Shown: piece by piece, positions 9,619 through 63,852 of the stretch
How the letters are laid out: every line of letters starts with the position of its first letter
Numbering within the stretch: the stretch's first letter is position 1
Assembly (NCBI GenBank): GCA_043801855.1
Contig: JAZDLQ010000098.1
Coordinates: 2,356-66,355 of the forward strand
Reading direction: 5' to 3'
DNA from: an archaeon
GTDB lineage: Archaea > Nanobdellota > Nanobdellia > Woesearchaeales > GW2011-AR15
DNA length: 64,000 nt
Translations under genes and position numbers: made by a program
The notes under the pieces: generated by a model
Databases searched by the model: none
The model's input: the letters and a program-made list of their open reading frames with translations, nothing else
Told to the model about the DNA's origin: nothing

Positions 9619-9627
9619 GATTGAACT

Positions 9628-47900: not shown

Positions 47901-50900
47901 CTTTTGCAGATTCAGCTGCATTATGCGCTGAGGTGTTTTGGTAAAGGTGTGTTACATTAAAAGTTGCATTAGCATTTAGCGATGATACTGTGTCGTCAAA
48001 TGATTGTATAAAATATTCCCCTTCGCAGATGTCACTTGTGTTAAAGATATGATTGATACTTCCTTCATTATTAAATAAAATATTTTTTGGAAAAAAGCCT
48101 GCAAATAAGGACCTGTTTATTGTACTTATCAAAAGCCTTCCAATTCCGCTTGCTGTATAATAGTTTCCAGTGATATTTATTGTATTTGATTGGTCATACT
48201 CATCAAGGTTTGTATCTAGTGTTGCAATCCTAAGAACTGTAAAACCAATCGAGATATTTTCTTTGCGGTCGTTTGGATTATATGCGCTTAAATTATATTC
48301 TGCAACATTTTGTGATGACACTCTTGTAAGCCAGAGGTCAGTTATTGCACCATCTGCTGTTGCAGTTACATTTTTTGGGTATCCACTGATGTTTTGTCCT
48401 GTTGAATTAGTAATGTTTAACGTTATTTTTGAATTTCTTTTCCAATATGCTCCTGTAAAATAAACTGTTTCGCCAACTACATAAGAGTCCTTGTTTTTTG
48501 AAAGCTCCTGGCGAACAATTGAAAAAACAGATGTGTTAAAAAGATTTGAGTAATTTGTATCAGTTGCATTTATCGTATAATTTGAAATGCCAAATTCCAA
48601 AACTAATAGCGAATCATTTATGCTTCCAGTTGAATTTGATAAAATCTCTTTTGGATAAGATGGAAGGCGATTAAATGAGGAATCATAAATATCAAGCAAA
48701 ATTACAGAATCAGATGAGAATCCATGCCCTGAAATAGTAATATTATCTCCTTCTTTATACCAGGAATAATCCGCAAAGATTTCAACAGACCTATTTTCTA
48801 TGGTAAAAGTGAAGTCATCATTTTTTAGCCCGATGTCGGCGTCTATCGCATAAATTTTATATGCCCCTGAAGAAAGATTATACAAAGACTGCCATGTGAA
48901 ATTAAAGTATCCTGTTGCATTTGCAGTATAATTTAATGGGCCAAAAATTATTGAATTTTCGTTGTTAGTTATGTTTATTGTGACATTTGAATCAGGCTCC
49001 CAGTTGTAGCCAATAAATGTGATTATATCTCCCTGCTGATATGATTGGAAAGGCGATTCAATTATTGAAGATACTATAGTAAATGAAACATTTGCAGAAA
49101 GATTAGTATTTGCTTCATCTGTTGCATTAAGAGAGTATTGCCCAAGTGCGCTAAATTCTGGCACAAGCCAAGTGTCAGTTATGTCTCCTGTTAAATTTGA
49201 TATGATTGTTTTAGGATAGCCGCTAACAATATCAAAAGTTGTATTGTATAAAGTTATATTTATGTTAGATTGAGATGAAAATCCACCTGCTATGATTCTT
49301 ACAGTTTCGCCTTCTATATAATCTTCTTTATCTGTAAAAAGATATGAATCTTGCGGCTGCACAATATAACTTGCTTTTTCTGTTGAATTTATTTTTTCTA
49401 AAATATCAATCGCATAAATTGTCACATTATATATTCCAATCAAAATATTGCCATCAAAAATACCTGAATAAATGCTGTCAAAATCATCATCGAGAAGTGC
49501 AATTTCATAAACTGAAGCATTTGGAAGTGCAATTATTGCGTTTACTCCATCAACTCCAAGAGAATCTGTTACATTAGCGCTGATAATTACACTATAGCCA
49601 AGTTTCTGCGGATTAGGTGTGATTGTTATATTTTTAACTGTTGGAATAAACTTGTCAAGCGCAAGGCTTATTTCTGTATCATTAACACCTATATTTCCAA
49701 GCGAATCGTTTGCAAATGCTATTATTTCATAGTTCATTCCCTCTGAAAGCGGAATTGTTGAAAAGCTGCATTGATATGGGTAAGTTGTATCTATACAAAT
49801 TTGGCTTAATGCAGATGTTGAATTAAACCTGTAATAAAACCTAACAGCGCCAATCTGGCTATTATTGTCATTTACTGTTGCATTAACAATCATTGTTTGG
49901 TATGTGATATTTCCGTTTGCCTGCGGATAGTCAATTAAAATTACTGGGCCCTGCCTGTCAATTGTGATATTATATAAAGTATGGTTTGCCCCAATATTTC
50001 CAACAGTATCATTTGCAATTGCAATTAATTGATAGTTTCTTCCATCAGGCAATAGTGTTGTATTCCAGGTACATTGATATGGCTCTCTTCCATCTTCGCA
50101 TATTAGTACAGAATCATTTGTTTGGTTTTCTTTGTAGTAAAAAAATACAGTATCAACATCAGTATATGAATCATTTGCTGTTGCATTTATAATAATTTCA
50201 TTGACGCTTATATTTGTAAAGTTTCGTGGATAGCCAAATAATACGTTTGGTCCATTGTAATCAACTATTAAATTCTTAATCGTTGAATTTAGCTTGTTGT
50301 TAAATGCGTCTGCTGCTTCGATTCTGTATGTATGGTTTCCCTGGGAAAGCGAATTAAGTTCAAGAATTACAGGTGTTCCATTTACTGCGCTTCCATTCTG
50401 GCCGTTACGCCTGCCATCAACATAAATAAAATAGCTTAATGCAATGTCAATGTCATCTATTAATGTGAAATTAACAACTGGCGTTGCGTTTGTCGTGTTG
50501 TAATAGTCAACCGGTGAGCTAATTGTTGTATTAGGAGCTGCGATATCAAAAGCATCGCATGTAAAAAATTCCTGGAAGTCTCCTGAAAATGATGTTACAT
50601 TTGCAGACCACAGGTGATAACCTGTAATGTTAAAGTTGTCCCACCAGCATAGATCACCAGCATTGTTTGACTTCGCCCCTAAGTGAATCTCAATTGCTTG
50701 TGCATTAAGATTAATTGCAGTATTATTTATAATTGTTGCAGAATATGGATCATATAATGTTGAAAGTGGAGCTGTTGCGTATGTGTTGCATGCATAGCCT
50801 TTATAGGTTGAAGCATCCTCGCAGTTGCAATCTGTTGCTCCACCATCACATTGATAAAGCTGTGCATTTGTAAGAGTTCCGTCTCTGGCCCAAACCCTGC

Positions 50901-53900
50901 AATATTCAGTAGCTTCAAGGCTTCCGTAAAACCCATACCAGCTTATTTTTACATCAAAGCACTGCTGACCACTGCACGCAATTCTTGGATCAAAAGTGTA
51001 CCAAAGGCCCCTTGCTGCATCAAATGTATCCCAATCCTCCATCTGAAAGGCTGCTGTTCCTGCATAAGCGCTGTCTTCTGAGCATAAAAAATAATCAGTT
51101 CCCCTGTTATCGCATCCGTTAAAATCACTCCATGGACTGTATCTGGTGCAATTATCTCCAGTTGTACATGTCGCTAGCCTTACCTGGCTTAACGGGCTTG
51201 CCCATGGCGCATCTTCAAAATCTTCATACATCAATTGCATTTCAAGGAGTGGAATTTGAGTATAATTAGGGTTTGATGCAAGACTATTATTATAGTAAAA
51301 ATAATAATTGCTCTCGTTTATTGCAAGCGCAGATATATTTCCGATAAATATTATGTCACAATATGTTGAATTATCTCCCCCATAAATATTAAATGGAACT
51401 GCTACACCTGTTATTGTTGAGACAACTCTTGTTTCATTTTCACAATTTCTAATATATCCGCCAAGGCCAGTAATGTTTACATAAATAGGCATATCAATTT
51501 TTGGCTCAGAAAGTGCATTTGATAGGTATATTGGCTTTCTTTTTTCCCATGATGAATTCCACCAGTCCCGCACAACAAAAGTGTCAGAAGCATTCAACAC
51601 ATTTGGGTATACAACATCAGTTCCTGTAACTTTATATGTGCCGCCGCAGTATTCGCTGATATTCCATGTAAAATTCATCTGGCCTATTGCGTCTGTCTGA
51701 ATCAGCCTTGGATATCCGCGTGCAATGCCTCCATTGTCAACTGAAAAAATTGAAACAGACACATTATTATCTGGAGAAAATGACCTGCCTGAAATATTTA
51801 CAAGCTCAAGAGAGAGATAATAATTTTTATCAGTAGCAATTGTCGCTGTTTTTAATACAGTAATATTAAGTGAAACTGCATCAGTTGGGTTGTTAAAATC
51901 ATATGCAGAAACATTAAAACTGGTTGCTGCAAAACCAATTGCCCTTGCAGTCCATGACGAACTTATAACACCTTCTGCATTTGCAGTCACATTTTTAGGA
52001 TAACCTGATTCTGAACTGCCTGATGAATTAATTATATCAAGTGTTATTGTTGAAGAACTATCCCAATAAAGCCCGCTTATTAAAACTGTTTCCAAATCAT
52101 CGTATACATTTTGATCAGTTGAAATATTTACTCCAACAACTGCAAAAAAAACCTCACTTGACAAATGCTCATAGGTTGCATCAGTTGCATTTATCGTATA
52201 ATTTCCAATTTCGTATCCATCTGTATTTATTGTGTAATTAAATTCGCCAGACTCATTTGTCTGAAGATAGACTGGATAATCTGGCATGACTGCGCCTGTT
52301 TCATCATATACATTAAACTCTAAAGACGTAAGGTTTGAAAACCTGCTGCCTGTTGCATTCAAAAGCTGCCTCCTCCTTACCCAGCTTCTATCCAATTGCA
52401 GAAATGTCTGCCTTTGTGTGATACTAAAAGTGTATTGGTCATATTTTCCTGGATCATTTGGCTCATATGCAAATATTGTATACTCACCAACAATATAATC
52501 AAAATCCAAGAACCATAATTCACTGACAAAGCCTCCTAAATCTGCGCTCAGGCTACTTGGGCCATACACAATATCCCCATTTGGATTAGTTATATTAACT
52601 TCAACTATTTCTCCAGGGTCCCATTGGTATCCAGATATATTTATCCATGAGCCTTGCTCTGTTATTGTTATGTTTGCTTCAATTACAGCTAGAACAACTT
52701 CAAGGGTTGCGTTGGCTGAAAAAGATGAGTCAATTAAATCTGTTGCATTAAGAGCATATATTCCAACTAAAAATCCTGCGTCAACAAGAAAGTTCTCTTC
52801 AAAATTCCCAGTTGCATTAACCGTTGCATTAATAGGGTAACCTAAAACCGGGTCTCCTGATGGGTCAAAAATACTTAAGCTAATATTATTGCCTGGAATA
52901 AACCCTCTTCCTGTAATGACTGCATATTCATTCTCTACGTACTGAGGCTTGTCTGTTGCGATTCCAAGAGCTCCAAGAGTCACATTAAAAAATAAATTTT
53001 CAGTGATATTGGAATTGCCTAGGGTATCATTTGCAAAAATTGAAAAATTATATGTCCCAAGCAATGTTGTGTCTGCAAAGCTTAGAAGATAAACATTATC
53101 AAAATTTGGATCAGAAATTGAATAGTTAAGTGTTGTACTGTTAGGGAGTGTTACTGAAAAAATAACTCTATCAATGCCAAGCATATCAACAATTGTTGCG
53201 TTGATATTTACAGGTGTATTAATAATTGATTCAACTGAAGAAAAAAGAATACTTTGCACAATTGGCGGAGTTTTATCAAGTGTAAAAGTGTAATTGTATG
53301 TGAACCAATCGCTTTTCGAAGGATTTGAATTATCTATGCAAAACACATTCCATTCGTATGCACCGTCTGTCCCTATCGCATAACTTATATTTGTCGGTAT
53401 GTTATTTTCAATATTGCTGCTTGAGGCAATAATTGACCAACCTGAATTATTCAAATATATTGAGCAGTTTGCAAGCCCTATATCATCTGAGACTGTAAAA
53501 TTAAAGTTGATTGGCATACTAGAAATGTTTGAGCCGTTTTGCGGAAAATTAAGGCTGCTTATGTTTGGAGGGGCATTGTATCTTGAATAATCAAGCGAAG
53601 CATATCCGTAATATTCCCTGTTTCCGGCTGTGTCAATTGTTACAGTTGGCTCAATCATACCACAGCTTGTATTATCAAATGTTGTCCCAGTCCATCTTGT
53701 ACAATGAAACTGTGTTGGCGAAACCGCACCGTAGCTTAAGCTTAAGCTTGTAAAAAGCATCTGGTCATTTTCAGGGTTTAAAATTAACCTCATTGAAGAT
53801 GTTAGATTGTTTGTTTTAGACATTCCTGTTAAATCTCCTGTCTGCCAGTCAGCGAAGTCAAACCTATCTGTTGCTCCCAAGAATCTTCCCCATTCAGGTG

Positions 53901-56900
53901 TCACTCCTTCTGCTCCAGCATCAGCCCATGTCAATACAGCAGTATTTCCATCATGCTCCCACTGGCAGGCTGCGTTAGAGTCTATTCCGAGAAGTGTTGA
54001 TGAGTCCTGGGATGGCGCGCCATCAACAATTAGCTCAGTGCCATTCCAGTAAGTTCCATCCCTATCAGAATCTTGGTCAGTTGACATAACAATTATCTTA
54101 TCGTGCGGCAGATTTCCTGTTACAGGCGTTTCGCCGCAGGTATCAATTATCCTTACTTCAGCTCCAAGGTCAGTATTATTCCATATTCTGCCTAAATCAT
54201 TCCAGGTTGTGCCATTAAATTCATAAGCCCACATCCCGTCAACTGCATCTCTTCCTAAGAAACACATAAGCTCCCCGCTTACTCCTTCCCATGCGCAGCT
54301 ACTGGTTTGCCTTGCCACATCAGGATTATCATTAAATAATTCCTGCCAGTTGTCAAATGCAGTCCCGTTCCATATTGCTGCCTCATATTCTCCGCCGTTT
54401 GTCTGCTCGTTTTGCAAAACGATTCCAATATCATTTGAGCCGTATTTAGGATAGAGATTTATAAACCTGAATTCAAAATTAAAAGCATCACTAACAGTTA
54501 CTGCAGTTGCTCCTGACAATACACCGCTTGTTGCATTATAAATCCTATATGAAAACTGGTTATTGTTACCAGCTACTGTTTCATAGACAATTAAGCAATT
54601 TCCCGATAAATCTTCGCACTCAACATCAAATTGCACATAGTTATTGTCAACTACTCCAAGTGTTAAGTTATTGCTCCATGAGTTATTGTTTTCGTAGTAT
54701 ATTAAAAAGTCAATTGAATTGTCCAGTTGGTTGCTTAAGTATAAGCACTCTGGCCTATCGCGCAGGCATCTGATTTTTTGCCATGCAGGAACGCTATTTA
54801 AGTTTGGGCCTGACTGCTCAATACCCATTGTATTGTCTGATGAATTCCATAATGCATATTTTATTATGTTAGCATTTGTTGTGTCTTTGTAAACAACAAT
54901 TGCTGAAACAGCGCGTGGGTCAATTGCGATAAACCATGGCCTTGCCTCTTCGAAAATGTTATTTCCATATGAAATTTCAGATGGACCTATTTCATAAAGC
55001 GCAGGAGATTCTTTTGGAGAATTAAAGCGGTATGAGACTAAAGAATTTTTTGTAAGATTGCTCCATATAAGATAAGTGCTGCCATTTCCTGCTTCTAAAA
55101 CTGCATTTCCATATTCAAACACATCAAATGATTCAGGTATTTTTTCTCTTATTGAATATTCCAAAACATCGATTTTTGGAATGATATTCAATTTAGCTTC
55201 ATATGTGCCATGCCATGGATCAATCACATGCGGCATTTTTCTGATTATATCAAACTCAAAAAAATCTCTGACTTCAAAATTTGTTAGCACTGTCTGGTTT
55301 AGGTTTTGCCCTGTTGCTAATACATAAAGAGAATACTCTCCTATAATCTGTGGCTCAGAAAAAGTTGCCTCATAAATGCCTTTACTTTTTTTAATTATTG
55401 AGCCGTAATCAGTTGACAATTCATACGTTATATTGTTTGGAGAAATTATTGATAATGTAACATTTGCATTCTCAGAAAGATAGCCAAACTTATCAAGGGC
55501 AACAATTGTTAATTTTACAGATTCACCTGGGTGATAGAGTGATTTTTCTGTATTTATTGAGGCAACGCCTACTTCAACAAACGCAGGATCATTGTGTGAT
55601 ATATTTATTGAATATTCCTGCCCGGGAATTAAATCCATTATCTTATGCCAGCTTCCATAGCACGTTCTTTCTGTAAAATTCCAGCCAGGGCATTTCCAAA
55701 GTTGTGTGCCAAGTGCAGCTCCTTTTATCTCTGCCTCTTCAAAATTAGCTTCTGTTGGGTCGATTGCAAATTCCCTTAGGCTAAACTTGCTTTTTTCGCT
55801 GTATGCGCCTTTTGGCAAACTGTCAATTTTAAGGTTAAATCTTTTTGATGAATCAACTCCAGTAAATTTTACATTCATGCCTTTGATCGCATCTGTTTTT
55901 ATTGTAAAATTTCGTTTGCCAGAAAATATAGGAGGGAGCGCGGATATAGAAACCGATTTTTGAGGGAATGGCTCTAATTCCAAATCGCTCCCGCCTACAG
56001 TATCCATTAAAGGATCATAATTGATTTCAAAGGAGATATTTTTTCCAGATGCGTCAGTCAATATTATTTTTTCAGAAACATTAATGTCTGAAGTGTTGCC
56101 AATTGTTACATTAGGCAAAATTACTAATCCTTCGATTGAACTATTTTCATTTAAACTTTGATTAATTGCCTCATTGTCAAGTGCAACATCTGTTTTGTTA
56201 ATACTTAATGCAGAATCATCTTGTTCTGGAATTATTGGCTCTGTTTTTTCTCCAACATAAAATGAGGCATTTGCAATCATCAGATTATTTTTTATTAATG
56301 ATAGCTCATAAAAACCAGAGTCTTTTGGAATAAAACTAATGCTTTCAAATAATTCTTCCATCCTATATGTTCTAGATGATGAGCTAATGACTAGTTCTGT
56401 ATCAGATAGGTTATTTGATTTTATAGAGATAAAAACTGTTTCGCTTTTTTTATACTCTTGCTTATCTGTTAAAATTTCTGCCTGCATGATAATTTCATCA
56501 TCAGGTTTATCATCATCAGGTTTATCATCATCAGGCTTGCCATCAAGCTTATTAATAGAATTGTTATCAGGAAATTTTTGCTGTGATGTACCAGAGGTAT
56601 AGAATTCCATTGAGTCAATGAGAATTGTTCCATTGAATGCTTCGATTATGTATTTACCACTTGATTTCAATGGAAGAGATAACTCAATTGCAGGAATAGA
56701 ATCAAACCGATAAACCCTGTTTGGAGATATTACTCTTAATGAAATATTTTGAAGTTCTGGCAGATTTAATATTATTTTTATATTTGAACCCTGCAAAAGA
56801 TTATCATAACCTATTGCAATTATTTCTTTTTCACTTGTCAGAAGATTGCCATCAGATGAAAAAACAGGAATAGCTGCAACAAAAAACAGCGCTGCTATAA

Positions 56901-56967
56901 GAAGATAAGAAATCCTATATGCAAACTTTTTATCAATTGAAAATTTAAATATCTTTCTGGCTGACAA
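44941..56967 (-). CDS. Giant secreted/surface protein (4008 aa) built from many Ig-like/beta-sandwich repeats
   Basis: Uninterrupted 12,027-nt ORF. TTG start 56967 is preceded by GAGGGAG. N-terminal hydrophobic anchor 'ISYLLIAALFFVAAIPVFSS'. Recurrent repeat families (e.g. '...V.FYY.....W...C.D...PY.C.W.....PDG.NY...A.ANDT.GNIG.N'), and a DUF2341-like 'WWNSSWEKRKPIYL' segment. Confidence 0.8.
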   Translation of the reverse strand: MSARKIFKFSIDKKFAYRISYLLIAALFFVAAIPVFSSDGNLLTSEKEIIAIGYDNLLQGSNIKIILNLPELQNISLRVISPNRVYRFDSIPAIELSLPLKSSGKYIIEAFNGTILIDSMEFYTSGTSQQKFPDNNSINKLDGKPDDDKPDDDKPDDEIIMQAEILTDKQEYKKSETVFISIKSNNLSDTELVISSSSRTYRMEELFESISFIPKDSGFYELSLIKNNLMIANASFYVGEKTEPIIPEQDDSALSINKTDVALDNEAINQSLNENSSIEGLVILPNVTIGNTSDINVSEKIILTDASGKNISFEINYDPLMDTVGGSDLELEPFPQKSVSISALPPIFSGKRNFTIKTDAIKGMNVKFTGVDSSKRFNLKIDSLPKGAYSEKSKFSLREFAIDPTEANFEEAEIKGAALGTQLWKCPGWNFTERTCYGSWHKIMDLIPGQEYSINISHNDPAFVEVGVASINTEKSLYHPGESVKLTIVALDKFGYLSENANVTLSIISPNNITYELSTDYGSIIKKSKGIYEATFSEPQIIGEYSLYVLATGQNLNQTVLTNFEVRDFFEFDIIRKMPHVIDPWHGTYEAKLNIIPKIDVLEYSIREKIPESFDVFEYGNAVLEAGNGSTYLIWSNLTKNSLVSYRFNSPKESPALYEIGPSEISYGNNIFEEARPWFIAIDPRAVSAIVVYKDTTNANIIKYALWNSSDNTMGIEQSGPNLNSVPAWQKIRCLRDRPECLYLSNQLDNSIDFLIYYENNNSWSNNLTLGVVDNNYVQFDVECEDLSGNCLIVYETVAGNNNQFSYRIYNATSGVLSGATAVTVSDAFNFEFRFINLYPKYGSNDIGIVLQNEQTNGGEYEAAIWNGTAFDNWQELFNDNPDVARQTSSCAWEGVSGELMCFLGRDAVDGMWAYEFNGTTWNDLGRIWNNTDLGAEVRIIDTCGETPVTGNLPHDKIIVMSTDQDSDRDGTYWNGTELIVDGAPSQDSSTLLGIDSNAACQWEHDGNTAVLTWADAGAEGVTPEWGRFLGATDRFDFADWQTGDLTGMSKTNNLTSSMRLILNPENDQMLFTSLSLSYGAVSPTQFHCTRWTGTTFDNTSCGMIEPTVTIDTAGNREYYGYASLDYSRYNAPPNISSLNFPQNGSNISSMPINFNFTVSDDIGLANCSIYLNNSGWSIIASSSNIENNIPTNISYAIGTDGAYEWNVFCIDNSNPSKSDWFTYNYTFTLDKTPPIVQSILFSSVESIINTPVNINATIVDMLGIDRVIFSVTLPNSTTLNYSISDPNFDNVYLLSFADTTLLGTYNFSIFANDTLGNSNITENLFFNVTLGALGIATDKPQYVENEYAVITGRGFIPGNNISLSIFDPSGDPVLGYPINATVNATGNFEENFLVDAGFLVGIYALNATDLIDSSFSANATLEVVLAVIEANITITEQGSWINISGYQWDPGEIVEVNITNPNGDIVYGPSSLSADLGGFVSELWFLDFDYIVGEYTIFAYEPNDPGKYDQYTFSITQRQTFLQLDRSWVRRRQLLNATGSRFSNLTSLEFNVYDETGAVMPDYPVYLQTNESGEFNYTINTDGYEIGNYTINATDATYEHLSSEVFFAVVGVNISTDQNVYDDLETVLISGLYWDSSSTITLDIINSSGSSESGYPKNVTANAEGVISSSWTARAIGFAATSFNVSAYDFNNPTDAVSLNITVLKTATIATDKNYYLSLELVNISGRSFSPDNNVSVSIFSVDNGGIARGYPRLIQTDAIGQMNFTWNISEYCGGTYKVTGTDVVYPNVLNASDTFVVRDWWNSSWEKRKPIYLSNALSEPKIDMPIYVNITGLGGYIRNCENETRVVSTITGVAVPFNIYGGDNSTYCDIIFIGNISALAINESNYYFYYNNSLASNPNYTQIPLLEMQLMYEDFEDAPWASPLSQVRLATCTTGDNCTRYSPWSDFNGCDNRGTDYFLCSEDSAYAGTAAFQMEDWDTFDAARGLWYTFDPRIACSGQQCFDVKISWYGFYGSLEATEYCRVWARDGTLTNAQLYQCDGGATDCNCEDASTYKGYACNTYATAPLSTLYDPYSATIINNTAINLNAQAIEIHLGAKSNNAGDLCWWDNFNITGYHLWSANVTSFSGDFQEFFTCDAFDIAAPNTTISSPVDYYNTTNATPVVNFTLIDDIDIALSYFIYVDGRRNGQNGSAVNGTPVILELNSLSQGNHTYRIEAADAFNNKLNSTIKNLIVDYNGPNVLFGYPRNFTNISVNEIIINATANDSYTDVDTVFFYYKENQTNDSVLICEDGREPYQCTWNTTLLPDGRNYQLIAIANDTVGNIGANHTLYNITIDRQGPVILIDYPQANGNITYQTMIVNATVNDNNSQIGAVRFYYRFNSTSALSQICIDTTYPYQCSFSTIPLSEGMNYEIIAFANDSLGNIGVNDTEISLALDKFIPTVKNITITPNPQKLGYSVIISANVTDSLGVDGVNAIIALPNASVYEIALLDDDFDSIYSGIFDGNILIGIYNVTIYAIDILEKINSTEKASYIVQPQDSYLFTDKEDYIEGETVRIIAGGFSSQSNINITLYNTTFDIVSGYPKTIISNLTGDITDTWLVPEFSALGQYSLNATDEANTNLSANVSFTIVSSIIESPFQSYQQGDIITFIGYNWEPDSNVTINITNNENSIIFGPLNYTANATGYFNFTWQSLYNLSSGAYKIYAIDADIGLKNDDFTFTIENRSVEIFADYSWYKEGDNITISGHGFSSDSVILLDIYDSSFNRLPSYPKEILSNSTGSINDSLLVLEFGISNYTINATDTNYSNLFNTSVFSIVRQELSKNKDSYVVGETVYFTGAYWKRNSKITLNITNSTGQNISGYPKNVTATADGAITDLWLTRVSSQNVAEYNLSAYNPNDRKENISIGFTVLRIATLDTNLDEYDQSNTINITGNYYTASGIGRLLISTINRSLFAGFFPKNILFNNEGSINHIFNTSDICEGEYFIQSFDDTVSSLNANATFNVTHLYQNTSAHNAAESAKEQSYNIAGGSVSSTSSLDNVYEYIGGADYATNFQGFINYTFNLSATGIDVPRIQNFSITMDYCHSGAQLNPLCGAGLPHEGATTGSQDFMIYNFSASVWQNMTSLPVSDSSDARRRFELKINRSFNDFISNYTVKIRIKLNFTQAGFSDDALLIDYLAINVTHKSHLSKPCTPFTDKYLSLRNLRPDLSAYSPRVFIKNATGTILDNVTGDYFRYITLPNISVLSIFSLSKGVLNYEIFNISMSAPVNLTPVISENYSFSLPQNIINITPLISINDSLINYTKASLAIPKSGLDVNTIMHCTDFNFSNGVCNIFELNETSEYPFYENTTHFLINVTGFDSFGGGAGRTLPNITSISVYNVTGNIDSHTGGTFVSQGLNTTFTLIPGNTYRMEFAIYNSGRRWALASNDQIYHRGLNSSWGLNASGDIWYRLSDGTNRSSGNFSNGNVTWNASKGGFLNAGATGYFYYVVNISVNHSARYPVYFYLNDTSYASGSTDASIFNLPDTITPYAIINYPQNHLNISRSFINFNWTPIDDLSSNLTCNLTIDGTTNATIISQRNLAVNYTISGFNEGGHFWNVSCFDLSNNTNATQTYNFTIDLAGPQTNITNPVNYTNITQNTFVLSATAIDSLLNVDTVKFYYKILSNSSWEFACSDNRQPYSCTWNLALVPDGLNYEVMANANDTVGNIGANSTAYNITIDRKGPHHVEININDDNVSVRINWTSALDADSYSIYTTTNYSQGFSDTPETSEITDLNWTDSTGISQKKYYLVAAVRGGQTGNATEIAGIQTLEIDIGWNLISIPFNLSNWLLYNGTNNGVDIFTYPDNCILSLWRYNSSDKAFERLDHSADEWHRGVGSYEFKTLGPQKGYWAEADSVCNVSFAGIVPIYNLTAPLIMEWNVVGWHSARIPQLYNESSLNPIDVSPQHSVTTIVKYDNIADLFEAAFRVYYPGYGAWWLPSFSLKPFEGYYFEAAQNGTWTIDPNKGT
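56495..56539 (-). repeat. 15-bp tandem repeat x3 encoding (KPDDD)3 inside the giant ORF
   Basis: TCATCATCAGGTTTA at 56495-56509 and 56510-56524, and TCATCATCAGGCTTG at 56525-56539. The protein reads GKPDDDKPDDDKPDDE. Confidence 0.8.
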
Positions 56968-57255
56968 AAATGTTCTCCCTCTTTTGACATTGAAATCTAG
57001 ACTGCCAATTATTGAGTGATAGAATCTAACTTTTGCAAAAAGTGATGTTACTAACGGTTATTATCTCTTTGCAAACACTCGCTTTGATGCTTTTTTGTTA
57101 TGTAAAAAACACATCAAACTAAATTGGCAAATCTCTCTCGCCATTCCCCCTCATATTTTAAAAGAAACCAAGCTTATAAAACTTGTTATTTTCATGAGAT
57201 AGAATAGAGAAGAAAAAACAAAAAAAATGCAAAAAAGAAAACAGGAAAAAGATTC

Positions 57256-58188
57256 CTAGCTTAAACTAGCTGTAAAAAGAAGGTTACCCTGGCAAACGCC
57301 GCCAGCACTTAATGGAACTTTTAGCTTAAAAAAAGTCGTGTTCTGGCTTATAATGTTTTCATCAGTTGCCTTTGAGACATATAAATCACGCATCATAACT
57401 CCTGATCCTGTCAACGGAGTCATACCTATATTCCAGTCTTGGCCTGAGGTTATGTTATACCTTACATATGTTGCAGGAATATTTCCTTCTTCGCAAACCA
57501 TCGCAAGGTTATCTCCAAGAGCTAAACCATAGCCTGATACTGATAAGTTGACAGCAATATTTCCTGCATTTGTTATATTTGCTTCCTTGTCTGTTGATGT
57601 GTCTCCAAAAGTTAAGTCACCGAAGCGAAGCACTGTATTTACTGGAATATAAATTGCAACAAGTGGATTAATTGTTACTGCATTTGATATGTTTGTTGCA
57701 GCTGCTGCGTTAGAATCAATTGCTGTCGCATTAGCACGCCATGTTCCGTTATTTGCAAAGTAAATTACATTAAAGCCACAGGCAAACTCCATCTCTGTAT
57801 CATTCTCATCATTTGTTGTGCATGTTGTATTTGTATAGTGTGTATTTTTGTTGTCAGGCTCATTTGTCCTGTTTTGAAAATAAAAAAATGTCGCATTGAC
57901 TGACTCTGTGTTATTATCATAATCAAAAACAGTCACGTTGCAGATAAAAGACATGTTGCCATATGCTTCAAGGTTGATAGTTGACGGGCAGACAACTGAC
58001 CTCACATCAGGCGCAGCGTTTGTGATATTTACAGTCATGTTAAGGGTCTGGTTAACATCGGCTGACGCAAATGTTGGGCTGAATAATAATGACAGCCATA
58101 GCAGTGCAATGAAAACTAAAGACATCAAAAATAAGATATAGTTTTTTCCCCTCGACAAAATACTCCCCCCGATTATAGGCTGATGCAC
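57256..58188 (-). CDS. Secreted sequon-rich protein carrying the shared about 270-aa two-domain module (paralog A)
   Basis: Paralogous to 59631-60590 and to the C-terminus of the 1367-aa protein. The longest ORF starts at GTG 58188. A TTG at 58158 preceded by GGGGGGAG gives a clean signal peptide (SRGKNYILFLMSLVFIALLWLSLLFSPTFASA). Confidence 0.6.
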   Translation of the reverse strand: MHQPIIGGSILSRGKNYILFLMSLVFIALLWLSLLFSPTFASADVNQTLNMTVNITNAAPDVRSVVCPSTINLEAYGNMSFICNVTVFDYDNNTESVNATFFYFQNRTNEPDNKNTHYTNTTCTTNDENDTEMEFACGFNVIYFANNGTWRANATAIDSNAAAATNISNAVTINPLVAIYIPVNTVLRFGDLTFGDTSTDKEANITNAGNIAVNLSVSGYGLALGDNLAMVCEEGNIPATYVRYNITSGQDWNIGMTPLTGSGVMMRDLYVSKATDENIISQNTTFFKLKVPLSAGGVCQGNLLFTASLS

Positions 58189-58344
58189 TTATAAATTTAT
58201 AATAACTATTATAATATGCAAATGAAATTGCAACTTAAATATTGCACAAATAATAAATGCAATCAAACCCCCTATTAACTAAAATGCATAACCCCTTAAT
58301 AAATATTATGGAAATAACGAACATGATAGATATTATGATTTTAG

Positions 58345-59121
58345 TTATCTATTACCATTTATTCTATTAATTGTTATATCTAAGAAAGATTTTTCTTTTT
58401 CAATCCCAATATATTTTCTTCCTAGATTTATTGCTGCTACTCCAGTTGTGCCAGAGCCATTAAATATGTCCAAAACCAAGTCGCCAATATTTGTAGAAGA
58501 AGAGATTATTCGTTTCAATAGTTCTAGAGGCTTTTGTGTTGGATGCCTTCCGGTTTTTTTTTCAGAAAGCGGAGTAATTGGTATTGACCAAACGCTTCTC
58601 ATCTGTTTACCTGGATTATTTATCTTATCTTTGCTTACATCCCAATTTTTCATTAATCCATAATTGAATGTATGTCTGGAACGTTTTGATTTTTTAGCCC
58701 ACAGAACGGTCTCATGGCTGTGCGTAAAATACCTACAAGCAAGATTAGGCGGGCCGTTTGGCTTAAACCAGACAACCTCATTCATTATAAAATATCCAAG
58801 TTTTTCAAGGGCGAAGCCTACCTTGTAGATATTGTGATGTGTTCCGGATATCCATATTGTGCCATCATCATGTAAAACTTTCCTGCAAGCATCTAGCCAT
58901 CTCATCGTAAAATTGAAATCAATTTCATGGCCACTTGACTTATCCCAATTGCCCTTATTTACGCAAACCATCTTTCCTGCTTTACATGTTACTCCGCCAT
59001 TCGAAAGGAAGTACGGCGGGTCCGCGAATATCATGTTGACAGATCTTTCTTTAAGGTAAGGAAGAATGAGGAGGCAGTCTCCCTCATATAAAACAAAACT
59101 ATCATCCGAGTAATAAGTCAT
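58345..59121 (-). CDS. Beta-class N6-adenine (or N4-cytosine) DNA methyltransferase, DpnA/M2.DpnII-like
   Basis: Motif IV 'IFADPPYFLSNGG' precedes motif I 'LDIFNGSGTTGVAA' (beta order). Also 'NLACRYFTHSHETVLWA' and 'RHPTQKPLELL'. The overall pattern matches my recollection of DpnA. Confidence 0.85.
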   Translation of the reverse strand: MTYYSDDSFVLYEGDCLLILPYLKERSVNMIFADPPYFLSNGGVTCKAGKMVCVNKGNWDKSSGHEIDFNFTMRWLDACRKVLHDDGTIWISGTHHNIYKVGFALEKLGYFIMNEVVWFKPNGPPNLACRYFTHSHETVLWAKKSKRSRHTFNYGLMKNWDVSKDKINNPGKQMRSVWSIPITPLSEKKTGRHPTQKPLELLKRIISSSTNIGDLVLDIFNGSGTTGVAAINLGRKYIGIEKEKSFLDITINRINGNR

Positions 59122-59131
59122 GACCCGACAC

Positions 59132-59190
59132 GATCAGATCGATCGGATCATTGATCCTTATAAATATGATCTTGTTACTAATCAATGATC
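59132..59190. promoter_or_regulatory. Cluster of seven GATC sites in 59 bp directly upstream of the methyltransferase start codon
   Basis: GATC at 59132, 59137, 59141, 59146, 59153, 59168 and 59187 (first bases). A TATA-like TTATAAATAT (59158-59167) is embedded in the cluster. Confidence 0.6.
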
Positions 59191-59208
59191 AGTTTTCTTA
59201 TAGATGCC

Positions 59209-59601
59209 TCACCCCATGAATTGAATAATTCCTTTATCACGCAATATTTGGAGCTGCTGCCTGATTTTCTCTTCAATGTGGCTATTATTTGGATGTAATA
59301 CTGCAAAATCTTTTTTATAATGATATAATTCTTTCAACTCAAATTCTTTTTTATTAAGTTTTTCAATACAATTTAAAACATCTGTAATCCAGCTTACCTG
59401 ATTGTTTTTTATATCTTTTAAGAAGGAAAATCTTTTTACTTTTTCATAGACTTTTTTCCTTTCTACAATTATCCCTTTTTCTATTATCGGAATTTTTGCG
59501 TCTGTCGGAATTGTCTGCATTAAAAAATAACAGCCAACCCACCCATGCCTTCTTGCAGTGTTTGATAACTGATTTCTTTTTTCAACAACTTTCTTTTTCA
59601 A
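59209..59601 (-). pseudogene. DpnI-family restriction enzyme remnant: C-terminal half only (winged-helix methyl-GATC reader), catalytic N-terminus missing
   Basis: 'TARRHGWVGC', 'VLNCIEKLNKKEFELKELY' and 'NSHIEEKIRQQLQILRDKGIIQF' match my memory of the DpnI C-terminal portion. The ORF opens with TTG right after an in-frame TAA, and the first ATG is codon 28. Confidence 0.65.
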
Positions 59602-59630
59602 AATTATAAGTAAAAAAATAAAAAAAATCC

Positions 59631-60590
59631 TTAATAAAGGCTTGCTGTAAACATCACTTTTCCCTGGCAGATGCCGCCAACTCCAGTTGGAATCTTAAGC
59701 TTCCAGTATGTCGTATTCATGCTTGGGCTATTTTCATTTGTTGTCTTATTTATATTCCAGTTTCGGATTAGAGTATTTGTTGAGTTTAACCCTAACATTA
59801 CTGTTTCGTAGTTTTGGTTTGGGTTGATATGGTATTTCTGGTATCCGATAGGAATTGAGCCATAGCTGCATACCATGCTTAAGTTATCTCCTCTTGTTGT
59901 ACCCCAACCCTGGATACTTACATTAACCCTGATGTTCCCAGCGTTTGTTACATTTGCAAGCTTATCTGTTGAGATATCGTTGTAGTTCATCTCACCGTAA
60001 TTAAGCACAGTATTATCTGGTATGTAAAGCGCGATAAGTGGATTGATCCTTAATGAGCTAGACCTGTTATCTCCTGTTGCAGTCCCTACATCTTCTGCTG
60101 TTACATTGCTATACCATGTTCCGTTATTGGTAAAATACGCAACATTAAATCCGCATGTAAAATTCATGTAGAAATCCTGCTGCGTATCATTAGAGCACGT
60201 AACATTAGTATAATGGGTGTTCTTATCATTCGGCTGATCTGTCCTATTCAAATAATAATAAAATGTCGCATTTACTTTAGCTGTATTATTATCATAGTCA
60301 TATACTGTGACATTGCATAAAACAGTGGTGTTTCCATAAGCATCAAGGTCAACTGTAGAGGGGCATACAACTGATCTCACTTCTGGAGCTGAATTTGTAA
60401 CATTCACCGTAGTATTTAGTGTTTGATTCACTGCAGCACCGTTTGCAGCAATCGATATTTCAGGCATAAATAGTATATACACCCATATTACAAATACAAA
60501 CCCCAGCATCACTATAGACAATAAGGTTTTCCAGTCTTTTTTCCTTTTCATTGATTTCCCCTCCATTTTTTCTATTTTGATTTTTTTCAT
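59631..60590 (-). CDS. Secreted sequon-rich protein carrying the shared two-domain module (paralog B)
   Basis: Aligns by eye along its full length with 57256-58188 ('NQTLN.TVN.TN.AP.VRSVVCPST..L.AYGN', 'DKNTHYTN.TC', 'CQG...FTASL'). The probable start is ATG 60551, preceded by GGAGGGG. Confidence 0.6.
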   Translation of the reverse strand: MKKIKIEKMEGKSMKRKKDWKTLLSIVMLGFVFVIWVYILFMPEISIAANGAAVNQTLNTTVNVTNSAPEVRSVVCPSTVDLDAYGNTTVLCNVTVYDYDNNTAKVNATFYYYLNRTDQPNDKNTHYTNVTCSNDTQQDFYMNFTCGFNVAYFTNNGTWYSNVTAEDVGTATGDNRSSSLRINPLIALYIPDNTVLNYGEMNYNDISTDKLANVTNAGNIRVNVSIQGWGTTRGDNLSMVCSYGSIPIGYQKYHINPNQNYETVMLGLNSTNTLIRNWNINKTTNENSPSMNTTYWKLKIPTGVGGICQGKVMFTASLY

Positions 60591-60598
60591 TTTTTATT

Positions 60599-63500
60599 TT
60601 ATTTTTTTATTGACGATATGATTGTAACTAATTCTTCTTTTGTTTTTGCCATTTGTATTGCCTCGCCAAGGCCTGGCATATGAAATACGCTTGCAATCCA
60701 GTTTGCAAAATCGTTTTTCTGATTATTTACATGATTGTAAAATGTTGCTTCATCAAGCTCAGGCACAATACTGAAAAACTCCTCAATGCTTCTTATTACA
60801 TCCCCATTGCTCAGGAAAAAATACTGGCTTGGGCTTGTAATAAGATTATAGTCAAGCACAATATGATTTAATGACTGCGCTGCTGCAATATTTCCCGCAA
60901 CACTTGGCGTTTGTTTGTTTTCGTGCACTTCGATTTTTATTTCCGGCGGCTGAATTGGCACTAATTTTTCCTGAACAAATGTTTTTTGCTCATTTGACAA
61001 AGCCTGACCTACTGGTACTGCTTCCTGCTCGCCTTTTTTGTTTGGAATAAATCTAGCCATTATTTCTCCTACTTTTCCAAATTTAACTTCCTGGATTGCT
61101 ACAAGATAATATAGCAAGAGCGAAACAAGAAGGCCTACGCCTGCAAGCATAAATAGTGTTTGCATTAATCCATAAGGAGATATTCTTGATATCTGCGATA
61201 CGAACCCAGTCACCAGATTGCTTGATGGCTTAATTACAGATTCAGGCCGAAGCAGCACAACAGTTTTTGTGTTTTTAGCGCTCTCGCTTGTATCCTCTGT
61301 CAGAATAAAATACTTTATTTCAAACTGGTCATACGAAAGCTTTACAAGATTCCATCCAACAATAGGGTCCTGCTTAATTATTACATAATCTGGTGTTTTT
61401 ATATCAACTGTCCCAAGGTCTGAGGCAACAGTTTTTGGGATTATTTCAAGGAGCTTTACATTAGTTAGCTCTTCAGGGCTTTCATAAGTCACTTTTTTTG
61501 TGACAAGAACCCTTCCTTCTGTATTGCCAAACAGATAAACAATCGAAAGTGTCTTTATTTCTGAAGTTATCTTGATATTTCCTGAAAATGCATAGATTTT
61601 TTCCTTATAATATTTTAATTGTGAATTTGTATAGTTTGTGTCCCTTGTCACTTCTGCAACAGCTTCATCGACATCTGCATTTGATATTGGCTGGACAAGT
61701 TCAGTTTTTTTAACTACATCAAGCTTTTGAGGAGTTGTTTTTTGCAGGTTATTAACTATTGATTTAGCGCGCGAAATGTGCTGTAATAAATCAGCATTTG
61801 TGTAAGTTAATGGATTGATATCCTTAAACTGGGCTTTTAGTTTTGATAATTCTCCTTTTGCATCCAATACTTTTTTAACAAGAGCAAGCTCATCAATTGC
61901 TGACTCTTTTCCTTTCTGCTCATTTAGCGCGTTTTCCGCCCAGTTTATATCTATCTCAAGCTTTTCTATACTTTTTAATGTCTTATTGAAATCTATTAGC
62001 GTATCATATTTTGGAACATCAACATTTGCTAATGCAGCTGTTGCTGCGCCTGATTTTGCAGCAAGCTTTGATACTTCCCTTGACAATGGGCCGATATTTC
62101 CTGCTTTATCAACTGCTGCGACCTTATAATAATAAGTGGTTCCTGCAATTACTTCTTCATCTGTAAATTCATCATCTGCTGTTTTTTTGAAATAATGTAT
62201 ATAGTCAACCCCGCTTGAGGCTGACCTATACACATTAAAATTCTCCTCTTCTTCCCCATCGTAATACCATTTAATCTGAATATTGCCATCACTATCTGCC
62301 TGTGCATCGATGCTTCTGACATCTGTTGGGGGAATTGTATCAACAAGGAAATTTTTGCCCTCAGTTATTTCAGTTCCAACTATTCCTGTCAAATCTGTTC
62401 CGCTAAAGCTAAACACGCCAACTCTTGGCAGGTCTGATTTTTCAATAACCATATAACCAGAATAATATCCTGAAGCCTTTATTAACGAAATTTCCCTTGT
62501 GAATGTATTTGAATCAGTAAATGAATAGCTTAATTTTGGGATTGAGCGCAGTGTTTTTGAAGTGTCAAGCCTTATTTCAATTATTCCAGCTTTTACTGGC
62601 GATATGTCGCTTAAGGTTATTTTTGCAGCAGGTGCTTTTTCATATTTAATAATAATTTCACGCTCTGCAAAATTGCCGTTAGAGTCTTTGCATAAAATAT
62701 AATATTCATTTTCGCCAAGGTCAAGGCCTTCAACTACAGTACTGAAGCTTGTCTCTTCTGAATTTTCAAATTCATCAAGATCGCTAAATTTATCATTGTC
62801 AGTGCCATATCTGCACTCTGCTTTTTTTGCTGTTGTTATGCTTAGAAGCGTATAATCTGTTGTTGTTGTAAGTGAAGAAGTCACTTGAATTTCAGGAATT
62901 GTTGTGTCAATTATGAATTTTAGTTCAATTGCATTTGGAAGCAGGTTTTCCTGGCTGTCTTTGCATTGTACAAATACTGTATGCGCTCCCTGCGAGATAG
63001 GTGTAAGGAAAGTATACTCGTGAGTTGTTGCTGCGCCATAGAATATAAAGTCCATGGCATCATAAGCTTCATTTGCATCAAGAGAGCCTTTGCATACAGA
63101 ATCTTTGTTTGTGGTTACTTTTATTGTTGGTGTTGAGTCAAGAAGGACTGGAACGCTTTCGCTGCCTGATGAATTTATCCTTGCGCCTTCAATTAAAGTT
63201 GCATTCACAAGCAATAATGCCTGGCCATGCACAATTACTGTTGAGTATGCATTATTATCTAATGTTGTTGCCTTATAGCCGTTTGCGCTTGTAAAATTGA
63301 CATAAGCGTAGTAAACCCCATCATGCGGGTTATTGCACTGCAATATCCAGGTGGGAACCGTGCCTGACACTGAGTTTACTGCTATGTCGCCTATGTTAAT
63401 TGACTGAGGAGTTATGAATGAAAGGCCGCTGTTTCCTGTTACATATAATGTTGCAGCAACAGAAGTTAGTGGAACACTCTCAAGGTTTCTTATTCCTGTT

Positions 63501-63655
63501 AGCGAAAACGTTGTGTATTGTGGATAGCCTCCGCATAGGTCAACACTTACTGGAGACATAGATGTTACCTGAACTGAGCCTGCTATTCCTGATTGCATGA
63601 GAGTAAAAACTATCAGAAGCAATATTACTGCCTTGATAATTTTTTCAGCTCTCAT
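60599..63655 (-). CDS. Type I membrane surface protein (1018 aa): signal peptide, beta-sandwich domains, FN3 domain, coiled coil, single TM, cytoplasmic DUF5752-like tail
   Basis: Signal 'AVILLLIVFTLMQSGIAGS'. FN3 'PPTDVRSIDAQADSDGNIQIKWYY...YYYKVAAVDKAGNIGPLS'. TM 'LFMLAGVGLLVSLLLYYLVAI'. Tail '...FYNHVNNQKNDFANWIASVF'. Confidence 0.7.
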   Translation of the reverse strand: MRAEKIIKAVILLLIVFTLMQSGIAGSVQVTSMSPVSVDLCGGYPQYTTFSLTGIRNLESVPLTSVAATLYVTGNSGLSFITPQSINIGDIAVNSVSGTVPTWILQCNNPHDGVYYAYVNFTSANGYKATTLDNNAYSTVIVHGQALLLVNATLIEGARINSSGSESVPVLLDSTPTIKVTTNKDSVCKGSLDANEAYDAMDFIFYGAATTHEYTFLTPISQGAHTVFVQCKDSQENLLPNAIELKFIIDTTIPEIQVTSSLTTTTDYTLLSITTAKKAECRYGTDNDKFSDLDEFENSEETSFSTVVEGLDLGENEYYILCKDSNGNFAEREIIIKYEKAPAAKITLSDISPVKAGIIEIRLDTSKTLRSIPKLSYSFTDSNTFTREISLIKASGYYSGYMVIEKSDLPRVGVFSFSGTDLTGIVGTEITEGKNFLVDTIPPTDVRSIDAQADSDGNIQIKWYYDGEEEENFNVYRSASSGVDYIHYFKKTADDEFTDEEVIAGTTYYYKVAAVDKAGNIGPLSREVSKLAAKSGAATAALANVDVPKYDTLIDFNKTLKSIEKLEIDINWAENALNEQKGKESAIDELALVKKVLDAKGELSKLKAQFKDINPLTYTNADLLQHISRAKSIVNNLQKTTPQKLDVVKKTELVQPISNADVDEAVAEVTRDTNYTNSQLKYYKEKIYAFSGNIKITSEIKTLSIVYLFGNTEGRVLVTKKVTYESPEELTNVKLLEIIPKTVASDLGTVDIKTPDYVIIKQDPIVGWNLVKLSYDQFEIKYFILTEDTSESAKNTKTVVLLRPESVIKPSSNLVTGFVSQISRISPYGLMQTLFMLAGVGLLVSLLLYYLVAIQEVKFGKVGEIMARFIPNKKGEQEAVPVGQALSNEQKTFVQEKLVPIQPPEIKIEVHENKQTPSVAGNIAAAQSLNHIVLDYNLITSPSQYFFLSNGDVIRSIEEFFSIVPELDEATFYNHVNNQKNDFANWIASVFHMPGLGEAIQMAKTKEELVTIISSIKK

Positions 63656-63852
63656 TTTTTCATCTTGTCAAGTATATTTTTGTCTTTTTCAATAGCTTCA
63701 GATATAGCTTTTTCAAAAAATTCGTTAAGTGTAATGTTTTTCAGAACAGCGATCACTTTGGCTTTTAAGTGTATATCCTCGTCGAGGACAATGTTAACTC
63801 TTTTTTGTTTTGCCATTGATAATTCGCTTTTAGCGTCTATTGTTTTAGCCAA
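63652..63852 (-). CDS. Ribbon-helix-helix (CopG/Arc-like) DNA-binding protein
   Basis: 'KRVNIVLDEDIHLKAKVIAVLKNITLNEFFEKAISEAIEKD' fits a beta-strand/helix/helix pattern. Its TGA overlaps the ATG of the 1018-aa gene (ATGA at 63652-63655). Confidence 0.6.
   Translation of the reverse strand: MAKTIDAKSELSMAKQKRVNIVLDEDIHLKAKVIAVLKNITLNEFFEKAISEAIEKDKNILDKMKK

Follow-up and report, generated by a model that had tools for sequence, protein, structure and literature searches.

An unnamed two-domain module that terminates proteins of a conserved cell surface locus in one order of DPANN archaea

We analyzed a stretch of 64,000 nucleotides from the genome of an uncultured member of the archaeal order Woesearchaeales (assembly GCA_043801855.1, contig JAZDLQ010000098.1, positions 2,356 to 66,355 of the forward strand), which is referred to here as the window. 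The subject is a module of about 255 to 265 residues that makes up two small proteins encoded in the window and forms the C-terminal end of a larger open reading frame (ORF). Its domain family is large, unnamed, and order-wide and follows one rule, namely, that the protein always ends in the module. The module is a fixed component of a conserved multigene cell surface locus in one DPANN order. DPANN archaea live attached to other cells, and almost nothing is known of the proteins that build their surface. In cultivated members, the predicted surface layer components are heavily N-glycosylated proteins with multiple immunoglobulin (Ig) domains, and no surface layer protein has yet been determined (bioRxiv 10.1101/2023.10.27.564410). 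Coordinates are those of the window (Table 1) unless a contig of the source genome G000 (C18 or C38) or another locus (L numbers) or genome (G numbers) is named.

The two small proteins, of 319 residues (paralog 1) and 310 residues (paralog 2), share 160 of 308 positions over their whole length (52% identity, E = 1e-119 in BLASTP), and both match residues ~1109 to 1364 of a 1,367-residue ORF (35% identity, E = 4e-38, and 37% identity, E = 1e-37). An earlier reading of the window made without database searches (the sequence-only reading) had aligned the small proteins by eye and had placed the same module at the end of the 1,367-residue protein. Both claims hold in a proper alignment, where the similarity is far above chance, and the motifs quoted at the time were all found, most of them at positions that vary little or not at all in an alignment of 39 family members. 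The module copy of the 1,367-residue ORF groups in the module tree with the C-terminal copy of locus L007 (support, 100/100). A fourth copy in the source genome lies on another contig (G000:C18:151129-152034) and is 48% identical.

To define the family, a profile was searched exhaustively against 1.84 billion representative sequences, which returned 612 proteins at E ≤ 1e-30 and 3,229 at E ≤ 0.001. Among the best 150 of these 612 proteins, 70 were stand-alone modules (290 to 370 residues), 33 had 541 to 660 residues, 27 had 661 to 1,500 residues, and 4 exceeded 1,500 residues, the largest having 4,139. In all 150, whose lengths range from 237 to 4,139 residues, the module ended no more than 9 residues from the C terminus of the protein (mean, 2.5). 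About half of the family members bear the module at the end of larger proteins, and a 4,152-residue giant in locus L050 terminates in it without a hydrophobic tail thereafter. The stand-alone and C-terminal cap forms described in the sequence-only reading are thus both real. The sources of the matches are named Woesearchaeota, Nanoarchaeota, or Nanoarchaeia archaea, and all annotated matches are labeled hypothetical protein. The module is present in 42 of the 151 genomes of the window's order, usually in 2 to 6 copies. In a phylum-wide sample, full-length matches were nearly confined to this order, and the family is essentially restricted to this one DPANN order; other orders of the class gave weak matches, mostly to domain 1 only, with the exception of genome G332. 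A number of proteins of ~300 residues, some of them in tandem arrays, match only profile positions ~10 to 217, that is, the N-terminal part and domain 1 (G067:C28:9270-11512, G215:C7, G375:C2, and others), and these also occur in other orders of the class. Such domain-1-only proteins suggest an older and wider family with exchanges of domain 2.

The module consists of a short conserved N-terminal strand (xNxTxxTxVNxTNxxPE) followed by two Ig-like β-sandwich domains. An AlphaFold2 model of the 319-residue protein, built on 38 sequences, is confident (mean predicted local distance difference test score [pLDDT], 90.3; predicted template modeling score [pTM], 0.73). It shows a hydrophobic N-terminal helix, a less ordered conserved stretch that separates this helix from domain 1, and two sandwiches with 8 strands in residues 70 to 182 and 9 strands in residues 210 to 318, within the 7 to 9 strands per domain of Ig-like and fibronectin type III (FnIII)-like folds. 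Domain 2 carries the motif TNxGN, the conserved residues C241 and C308, and a terminal GxCxGxxxFxA motif. A total of 15 to 16 positions are invariant in the family, namely, P69, Y127, C132, C146, W159, A187, G199, N216, G218, N219, C241, G306, C308, G310, and F314, to which T294 is added in the first alignment. Cysteines are conserved at positions 92, 132, 146, 241, and 308, and C161 is found in 24 of the 39 members, giving 5 to 6 in total. Conservation is uneven along the module. Residues 251 to 290 are the most divergent part both in the family and between the two paralogs, whose identity falls from 78% in the N-terminal strand to 59% in domain 1 and to 32% in residues 244 to 290.

The module proteins contain 17 to 20 N-x-S/T sequons each (family median, 6.2 per 100 residues), and 11 sequon positions are retained in at least 60% of the members. 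The density of 5.5 to 6.3 sequons per 100 residues compares with 0.2 to 0.8 in the cytoplasmic proteins of the window. The module proteins thus combine an export signal, a high sequon density, and extracellular cysteines, the features expected of surface glycoproteins, and from these sequence features they are predicted to be exported, glycosylated, and disulfide bonded. In the 319-residue protein, the 22-residue helix is followed by small-x-small motifs (ISIAA/NG), and the N termini of 38 homologs have a basic n-region and an h-region of 16 to 22 residues, often with A-x-A-like sites. This segment could be either a cleaved signal peptide or a membrane anchor; the term secreted, applied to the stand-alone forms in the sequence-only reading, is therefore uncertain. 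The module itself has no hydrophobic C-terminal tail. Its conserved N-terminal strand is also included in the fused forms, in many of which the profile match starts at ~34 to 50. The idea that this strand is an orphan donor strand is weakened accordingly, since the strand is present in fused forms and belongs to the module.

We then searched for a named relative. Neither Pfam nor NCBIfam gave a match above the curated cutoffs for the small proteins or a consistent match among the 39 family members; the best subthreshold matches of the small proteins were DUF4333 (17 bits; cutoff, 27) and TerD (13 bits; cutoff, 25). No sequence in the PDB was matched by the family profile (best E = 0.23). A Foldseek search of the PDB with the model retrieved 193 matches at E ≤ 0.001, and the 50 best were all proteins with Ig-like domains. 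These fold matches, which include RbmA, the legs of integrin alpha chains, the C-terminal barrels of transglutaminases, Fab chains, and phage Ig-domain proteins, are generic tandem Ig/FnIII matches, with TM-scores of ≤0.34 in the PDB and with TMq ≤0.30 and TMt up to 0.39 in BFVD. A specific fold match was defined as a TM-score above ~0.5 over both domains, and none reached this value. Literature searches found no description of the module or of its locus. The fold class of the module is ordinary, and the family is unnamed and undescribed, in agreement with the sequence-only reading, which had been unable to place it.

For the analysis of the genomic context, 23 loci were fetched and all their ORFs were clustered into families (F numbers); three genomes of the same taxonomic family as the source genome were added later. 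Genomes typically hold three forms of the module: a stand-alone copy after F3, a stand-alone copy after F0, and a copy that caps a protein of ~590 residues. (i) In the type A order, genes for F4 (~594 residues), F5 (~226), F8 (~700 to 860), and F3 (~960 to 1,060) precede a stand-alone module and a giant protein, and these are followed by a He_PIG protein (F14), the ~590-residue module-ended protein, and membrane proteins of ~400 residues (F6 and F20). Paralog 1 is such a copy; its gene starts 8 nucleotides past the stop codon of an F3 gene, which encodes a membrane protein of 1,018 residues. The F3-then-module order recurs in eight more loci (L005, L007, L041, L052, L054, L066, L067, and L069). 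The window's giant has 4,008 residues, and its orthologs come after the module gene in L005/G202 (the same contig), G265, and G192. (ii) In the type B order, one or two genes for the ~250-residue secreted F0 directly precede a stand-alone module, often in repeated units. Its surroundings include a helix-turn-helix gene followed by F0 (F2-F0), the ArsR-like regulator F7, and F11, a candidate S26/SipW-like peptidase of ~167 residues. In the loci examined, 19 of the 32 stand-alone copies come directly after F0 and another 6 after F3, so that 25 of 32 lie on the same strand after one of the two, often separated from it by somewhere between a few bases and a few tens of bases. The question raised in the sequence-only reading of whether the module always accompanies giant proteins has a divided answer, since F3-linked copies do adjoin a giant, whereas most stand-alone copies follow the much smaller F0.

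In the module tree, the stand-alone copies from one genome almost always form a group (L045, L044, L048, L047, L046, L043, L010, and L041). Those of G061 are nearly identical, and in G067 a type A copy and a type B copy are sisters (support, 99/96). This clustering points to repeated recent duplication or gene conversion within genomes.

F0 is itself a sizable family, with 52 copies in 15 of the loci, 8 copies in the source genome, and members in 57 of the 151 genomes of the order. Its genes usually lie immediately upstream of stand-alone module genes. It was found in 27 of the 32 genomes with a strong module match versus 30 of the 119 others (odds ratio, 16; P = 1.4e-9, with phylogeny ignored). 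The structure of F0 was modeled with confidence (pLDDT, 90.7; pTM, 0.83), and F0 has no match in Pfam, among PDB sequences, or among solved folds (best E = 0.15); by this model, it may represent a new fold. A distant relationship between F0 and the module was considered and rejected (hhalign probability, 9%). In the source genome, the type B cluster as well as F4, F5, F8, and F11 are all located on contig C18. The gene order of same-family genomes would fit a junction of C18 with the end of the window's contig, but the two ends do not overlap and the junction is unproven.

F11 lies outside the window, adjoins F0 and F2 genes, and is membrane anchored (G000:C18:156944-157447, which is L008:15944-16447; L005:622-1122; L041:7455-7958; and L069:18064-18570). 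It shows SMQPT- and HRV-type motifs by eye, and its matches to Peptidase_S24 and S26 are weak and under the cutoffs (E = 0.006 to 0.018). One possible role is that of an ER/SipW-type signal peptidase dedicated to the secreted proteins of the locus.

The recurrent F0-F0-module order raises the question of whether the stand-alone copies serve F0 as assembly chaperones or nucleators in the manner of PapD or TapA, with F11 as the SipW-like peptidase that processes the subunits. Two Ig-like domains and a chaperone-like size agree with such a role, as does the candidate peptidase gene in the same locus on C18, L005, L041, and L069; TapA is reported to act as a strand-complementing chaperone for TasA (PMC10151520). 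However, F0 does not resemble TasA, nothing in the PDB matches its confident model, and no PapD-type protein is among the 50 best PDB fold matches of the module. Furthermore, 30 genomes without a strong module match nevertheless have F0, and the module also caps large proteins, which is unlike a chaperone, PapD being found only as a free protein. We therefore regard a chaperone role as highly improbable. A fiber system of the TasA/TapA/SipW type was also rejected for F0 and the module, since neither has a TasA-like (Peptidase_M73) sequence or fold.

Our tentatively favored reading, although it falls short of being probable, gives the module a role in a glycosylated surface coat as a unit for protein-protein assembly or docking. 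It derives from the terminal position of the module, the exported two-Ig build, the coupling to F3 and F0, the clustering of copies within genomes, and the contrast between a conserved N-terminal strand and domain 1 on the one hand and the variable patch on the other. The N-terminal strand and domain 1 would provide a common contact to membrane-anchored or coat partners such as F3 and F0, this contact would hold otherwise anchorless secreted proteins on the cell surface, and the specificity of the individual copies would come from the variable patch in domain 2. Docking is further supported by the lack of a hydrophobic tail in the module and after it in the L050 giant, by the conserved gene orders and the co-occurrence of module and F0 in genomes, by the conserved sequons and cysteines, and by the N-glycosylated multi-Ig proteins predicted in DPANN surface layers. 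The clustering already mentioned, which in G067 extends across the two contexts, is what coevolution with a shared genome-specific partner would produce. Several points weigh against this proposal. Even with no common partner, repeated recent duplication or gene conversion could also make the paralogs of a genome cluster. Should the carriers keep an uncleaved N-terminal helix, the module would be distal, which fits a binding head better. The 4,008-residue giant of the window has no module, so that the module cannot be a general anchor of giants, and the co-occurrence test for F0 takes no account of phylogeny.

The main rival, which we consider unlikely but serious, is that the module is a distal binding head, such as an adhesin tip or a lectin-like domain. 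Carriers would be tethered by the N-terminal helix with the module outermost, where it would bind a host or substrate ligand through the variable patch of domain 2, and the stand-alone copies would act close to the membrane as short receptors or decoys. The strictly C-terminal position agrees with such a head, as do the N-terminal helix, which at 22 residues is long for a cleaved signal peptide, and the low identity of the patch between the paralogs. The best fold matches include RbmA, AgI/II BspA, the GspB Siglec domain, and integrin legs, and DPANN archaea are typically host attached (bioRxiv 10.1101/2023.10.27.564410). In contrast, the 11 conserved sequons suggest a glycan cover over much of the surface, and the module is conserved throughout an order in which hosts probably differ between members. 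In the stand-alone copies, ~15 to 25 residues separate helix and module, which places the module at the membrane and not at a tip, and the fold matches named above are generic.

The same generic fold, together with the sequon density, would also be compatible with a passive structural element of a surface-layer-like coat, that is, a spacer or lattice filler that owes its C-terminal position to descent, since predicted DPANN surface layer proteins are multi-Ig glycoproteins. A strictly terminal position in proteins of 237 to 4,139 residues is not expected of a spacer, however, nor are 15 to 16 invariant residues and a fixed gene order beside F0 and F3. In addition, the Big_7 and He_PIG domains of the same proteins repeat internally, whereas the module never does. 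A passive role is accordingly quite improbable.

The docking proposal can be extended to a lineage-specific DPANN surface assembly system, encoded in maybe ~45 kb and made up of several undescribed parts, in which the module is the universal connector to a common base. The system would comprise F0, the membrane proteins F3, F4, F5, and F8, the putative SipW-like peptidase, and the giants, and the module would plug secreted proteins into the base. We consider this extension doubtful; if true, the surface machinery of these archaea would be of a new kind, with no relation to type IV filaments, donor-strand fibers, or known surface layers. The conserved locus, with its other unnamed families, offers targets for structural and interaction studies of coat building and of the retention of giant proteins.

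The module was compared with several known systems. (i) MJ1_0160 and MJ1_0707 of Nanobdella aerobiophila and NEQ300 of Nanoarchaeum equitans are, like the module proteins, secreted or tethered, Ig-like, rich in sequons, and from the same phylum, and they likewise lack homology to characterized surface layer proteins; the likeness is one of features and not of compared sequences. The module differs in being a discrete two-domain unit that is always terminal and also stands alone, and nothing comparable is found in bioRxiv 10.1101/2023.10.27.564410. (ii) RbmA of Vibrio cholerae (PDB 4kkp, 4kkq, and 4be6) is a small secreted protein with two tandem FnIII/Ig-like sandwiches that works through protein-protein and glycan contacts in the extracellular matrix. 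It ranks high in the fold search (E = 2.7e-5), but with TM-scores of 0.24 to 0.34, a root mean square deviation of ~20 Å, 9 to 10% identity, and no profile match. Unlike the module, RbmA is bacterial, unglycosylated, and never the terminal domain of larger proteins. (iii) The C-terminal β-barrel pairs of transglutaminases (factor XIII and protein 4.2) and the thigh and calf domains of integrin alpha-V are also tandem Ig-like domains at the end or leg of an extracellular protein; this match is generic (TMq, 0.23 to 0.26) and without sequence signal, and these eukaryotic proteins have other partners. (iv) Cohesin-dockerin pairs and SLH, CWB2, and SlaB-type anchors follow the logic proposed here, in which a recurrent terminal module holds secreted proteins on a cell-bound partner, but no fold or sequence similarity to them was found in the Pfam, PDB profile, and Foldseek searches. 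No wall polymer to which SLH- or CWB2-type domains could bind is known in DPANN archaea. (v) With the tapA-sipW-tasA operon of Bacillus and archaeal donor-strand filaments (bundling pili and threads), the locus would have in common a dedicated ER/SipW-type peptidase gene, for which F11 is the candidate, next to genes for several small secreted β-rich proteins. The module and F0 differ in that they match neither TasA/camelysin nor any solved filament subunit.

As the sequence-only reading had stated, a DNA methyltransferase gene and a gene for a DpnI-family fragment lie exactly between the two paralogs. More precisely, this cassette is located after the oligo-T stretch that follows paralog 1 and before an AT-rich 156-nucleotide spacer upstream of paralog 2, with junctions known from the assembly alone. 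The methyltransferase is intact. The DpnI fragment comprises the last third of the catalytic domain and the C-terminal winged-helix domain, and because catalytic-domain positions 1 to 121 are missing, no nuclease activity is expected from it. Its homologs are mostly longer (172 to 223 residues), and 29 nucleotides separate this ORF from the upstream gene. The cassette contains no intact cognate endonuclease. Compared with type II restriction-modification genes, the cassette thus has a full-length β-class N6/N4 methyltransferase and only the end and winged helix of DpnI, and it is not part of the surface module.

The methyltransferase is single copy in the source genome. Its homologs (55 to 66% identity) are patchily distributed: ~13 of 150 genomes of the order have one, module loci and module contigs never do, and the five nearest homologs in other genomes have no DpnI-like neighbor. 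Across genomes, methyltransferase and module are not associated (Fisher P = 0.48). When the flanks were compared with related genomes, as had been proposed with the sequence-only reading, none of the four same-family genomes (G202, G265, G192, and G067) had the cassette at this junction, and no methyltransferase was found at or near module genes in any other locus or genome examined. Given its absence in the four relatives, the patchy homologs, and the missing association, the cassette is a mobile element inserted locally in the source genome only, and nothing indicates that it is functionally linked to the module. Foreign origin was not indicated by base composition, as GC content and GC content at third codon positions match those of the neighboring genes, and no target site duplication surrounds the cassette; the sole flanking repeat is the oligo-T stretch after each paralog.

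The exact position of the cassette between the duplicates could be taken as a sign that the two are functionally tied, for example, if methylation of a GATC cluster switched the downstream copy. The window is depleted in GATC (74 observed versus ~204 expected from base composition), and yet seven sites fall within the 87-nucleotide spacer between methyltransferase and DpnI fragment (59122-59208). This spacer does not precede the gene of the 310-residue protein, however, and neither the survey of other loci and genomes nor the genome-level test links the methyltransferase to module genes. We consider such a tie extremely improbable.

The tandem arrangement is likewise peculiar to the source genome. 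In the four same-family genomes, a single module gene lies between F3 and the giant. The paralogs of the window are sisters in the module tree (support, 96/63), within a clade that contains the type A copy of L007 (100/97). Because the paralogs are sisters and the relatives have a single gene, the 310-residue gene is a lineage-specific tandem duplicate of the type A gene. The repeated oligo-T stretches, read as terminators, suggest a duplication unit of ~1 kb that consisted of gene and terminator. For paralog 2, a 300-residue version that starts from TTG at 58158 is also on record (P0003).

The 1,367-residue ORF was found to be a fusion of two genes. Its first part is a He_PIG, Big_9, and PGF-pre-PGF surface protein with a C-terminal transmembrane helix, and its second part is a protein of ~590 residues with a signal peptide-like segment, a middle region, and the module. 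The two halves are adjacent separate genes in L009, L053, and G265 and are also separate in L047 to L049 and G202; in L009 and G265, the He_PIG gene and the ~590-residue gene overlap by a few to ~30 bases. The fusion is absent in G202 and G265, where the ~591-residue gene is separate, whereas the regions fetched for G192 and G067 stop short of these genes. It could be real, giving a transmembrane hairpin with two ectodomains, or could result from a one-base assembly error. The large adhesin-like carrier of the sequence-only reading is therefore a genome-specific product, and the native carrier has ~590 residues. The gene models are corrected in two respects, the 1,367-residue ORF being a two-gene fusion and the methylase cassette being no part of the surface system.

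Table 1. Positions of the module, its parts, and neighboring features in the window and on contigs of the source genome
Feature	Coordinates	Strand	Description
Stand-alone module protein, paralog 1	59631..60590	-	319 residues; type A copy
N-terminal hydrophobic helix of the 319-residue protein	60468..60533	-	Residues 20-41 (22 residues); from the model
Domain 1	60045..60383	-	Residues 70-182; Ig-like β-sandwich; C92, C132, C146; HYTNxSC, NNGTW
Linker (INPLxAL) and domain 2	59637..60044	-	Residues 183-318; β-sandwich
Variable patch of domain 2	59721..59840	-	Residues 251-290; column entropy, 2.1-2.6 bits
Stand-alone module protein, paralog 2	57256..58188	-	310 residues from GTG start; extra tandem duplicate
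C-terminal module copy within the 1,367-residue ORF	40853..41620	-	Residues ~1109-1364
1,367-residue ORF	40841..44944	-	Genome-specific fusion; junction around 42509-42655
1,018-residue membrane protein, family F3	60599..63655	-	Ig/Fn3-like ectodomain, one transmembrane helix, cytoplasmic tail
4,008-residue giant surface protein	44941..56967	-	Downstream neighbor of type A module gene; Big_7, MG2, Big_13 domains
N6/N4 DNA methyltransferase	58345..59121	-	258 residues; PF01555 positions 1-219 of 221, E = 1e-61; intact
DpnI-family fragment	59209..59601	-	130 residues; DpnI model positions 122-181 of 183 plus DpnI_C
Oligo-T stretch just past paralog 1 stop	59613..59628	-	Direct repeat D9
Oligo-T duplicate past paralog 2	57213-57228		94% identical; spacing, 2,400 nucleotides
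F0 copies	G000:C18:149354-150136, 150366-151088, 157522-158247 (L008:8352-9140, 9346-10095, 16520-17248)		Secreted proteins of ~250 residues
F0 copies	G000:C38:9045-9764, 9899-10585		

Further observations concern the membrane proteins and giants of the locus. A small ribbon-helix-helix-like ORF with weak matches (ParG/HicB-like) at 63652-63852 overlaps the start of the 1,018-residue gene. ORFs of 51 and 54 residues occupy the same position in L005 and L007, with a 4-nucleotide overlap with the start of F3, so that the pairing of a small ORF with F3 looks conserved. Residues ~905 to 1015 of the 1,018-residue protein (60599-60950) are cytoplasmic and give a weak DUF5752-like match. This F3 end of ~100 residues recurs at the C termini of F17, F8, and proteins of 439 and 538 residues (28 to 40% identity), which suggests, at the level of sequence, a shared intracellular adaptor domain. 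F5 (L008:18791-19471) and the C-terminal region of the giant (44941-45600) have the exact motif GWNLISIP in common; a shared domain is possible, but besides this motif there is only a weak stretch of 25% identity (E = 0.02). The last ~400 residues of the giant are conserved in the tails of other giants (L047 to L049 and L053).

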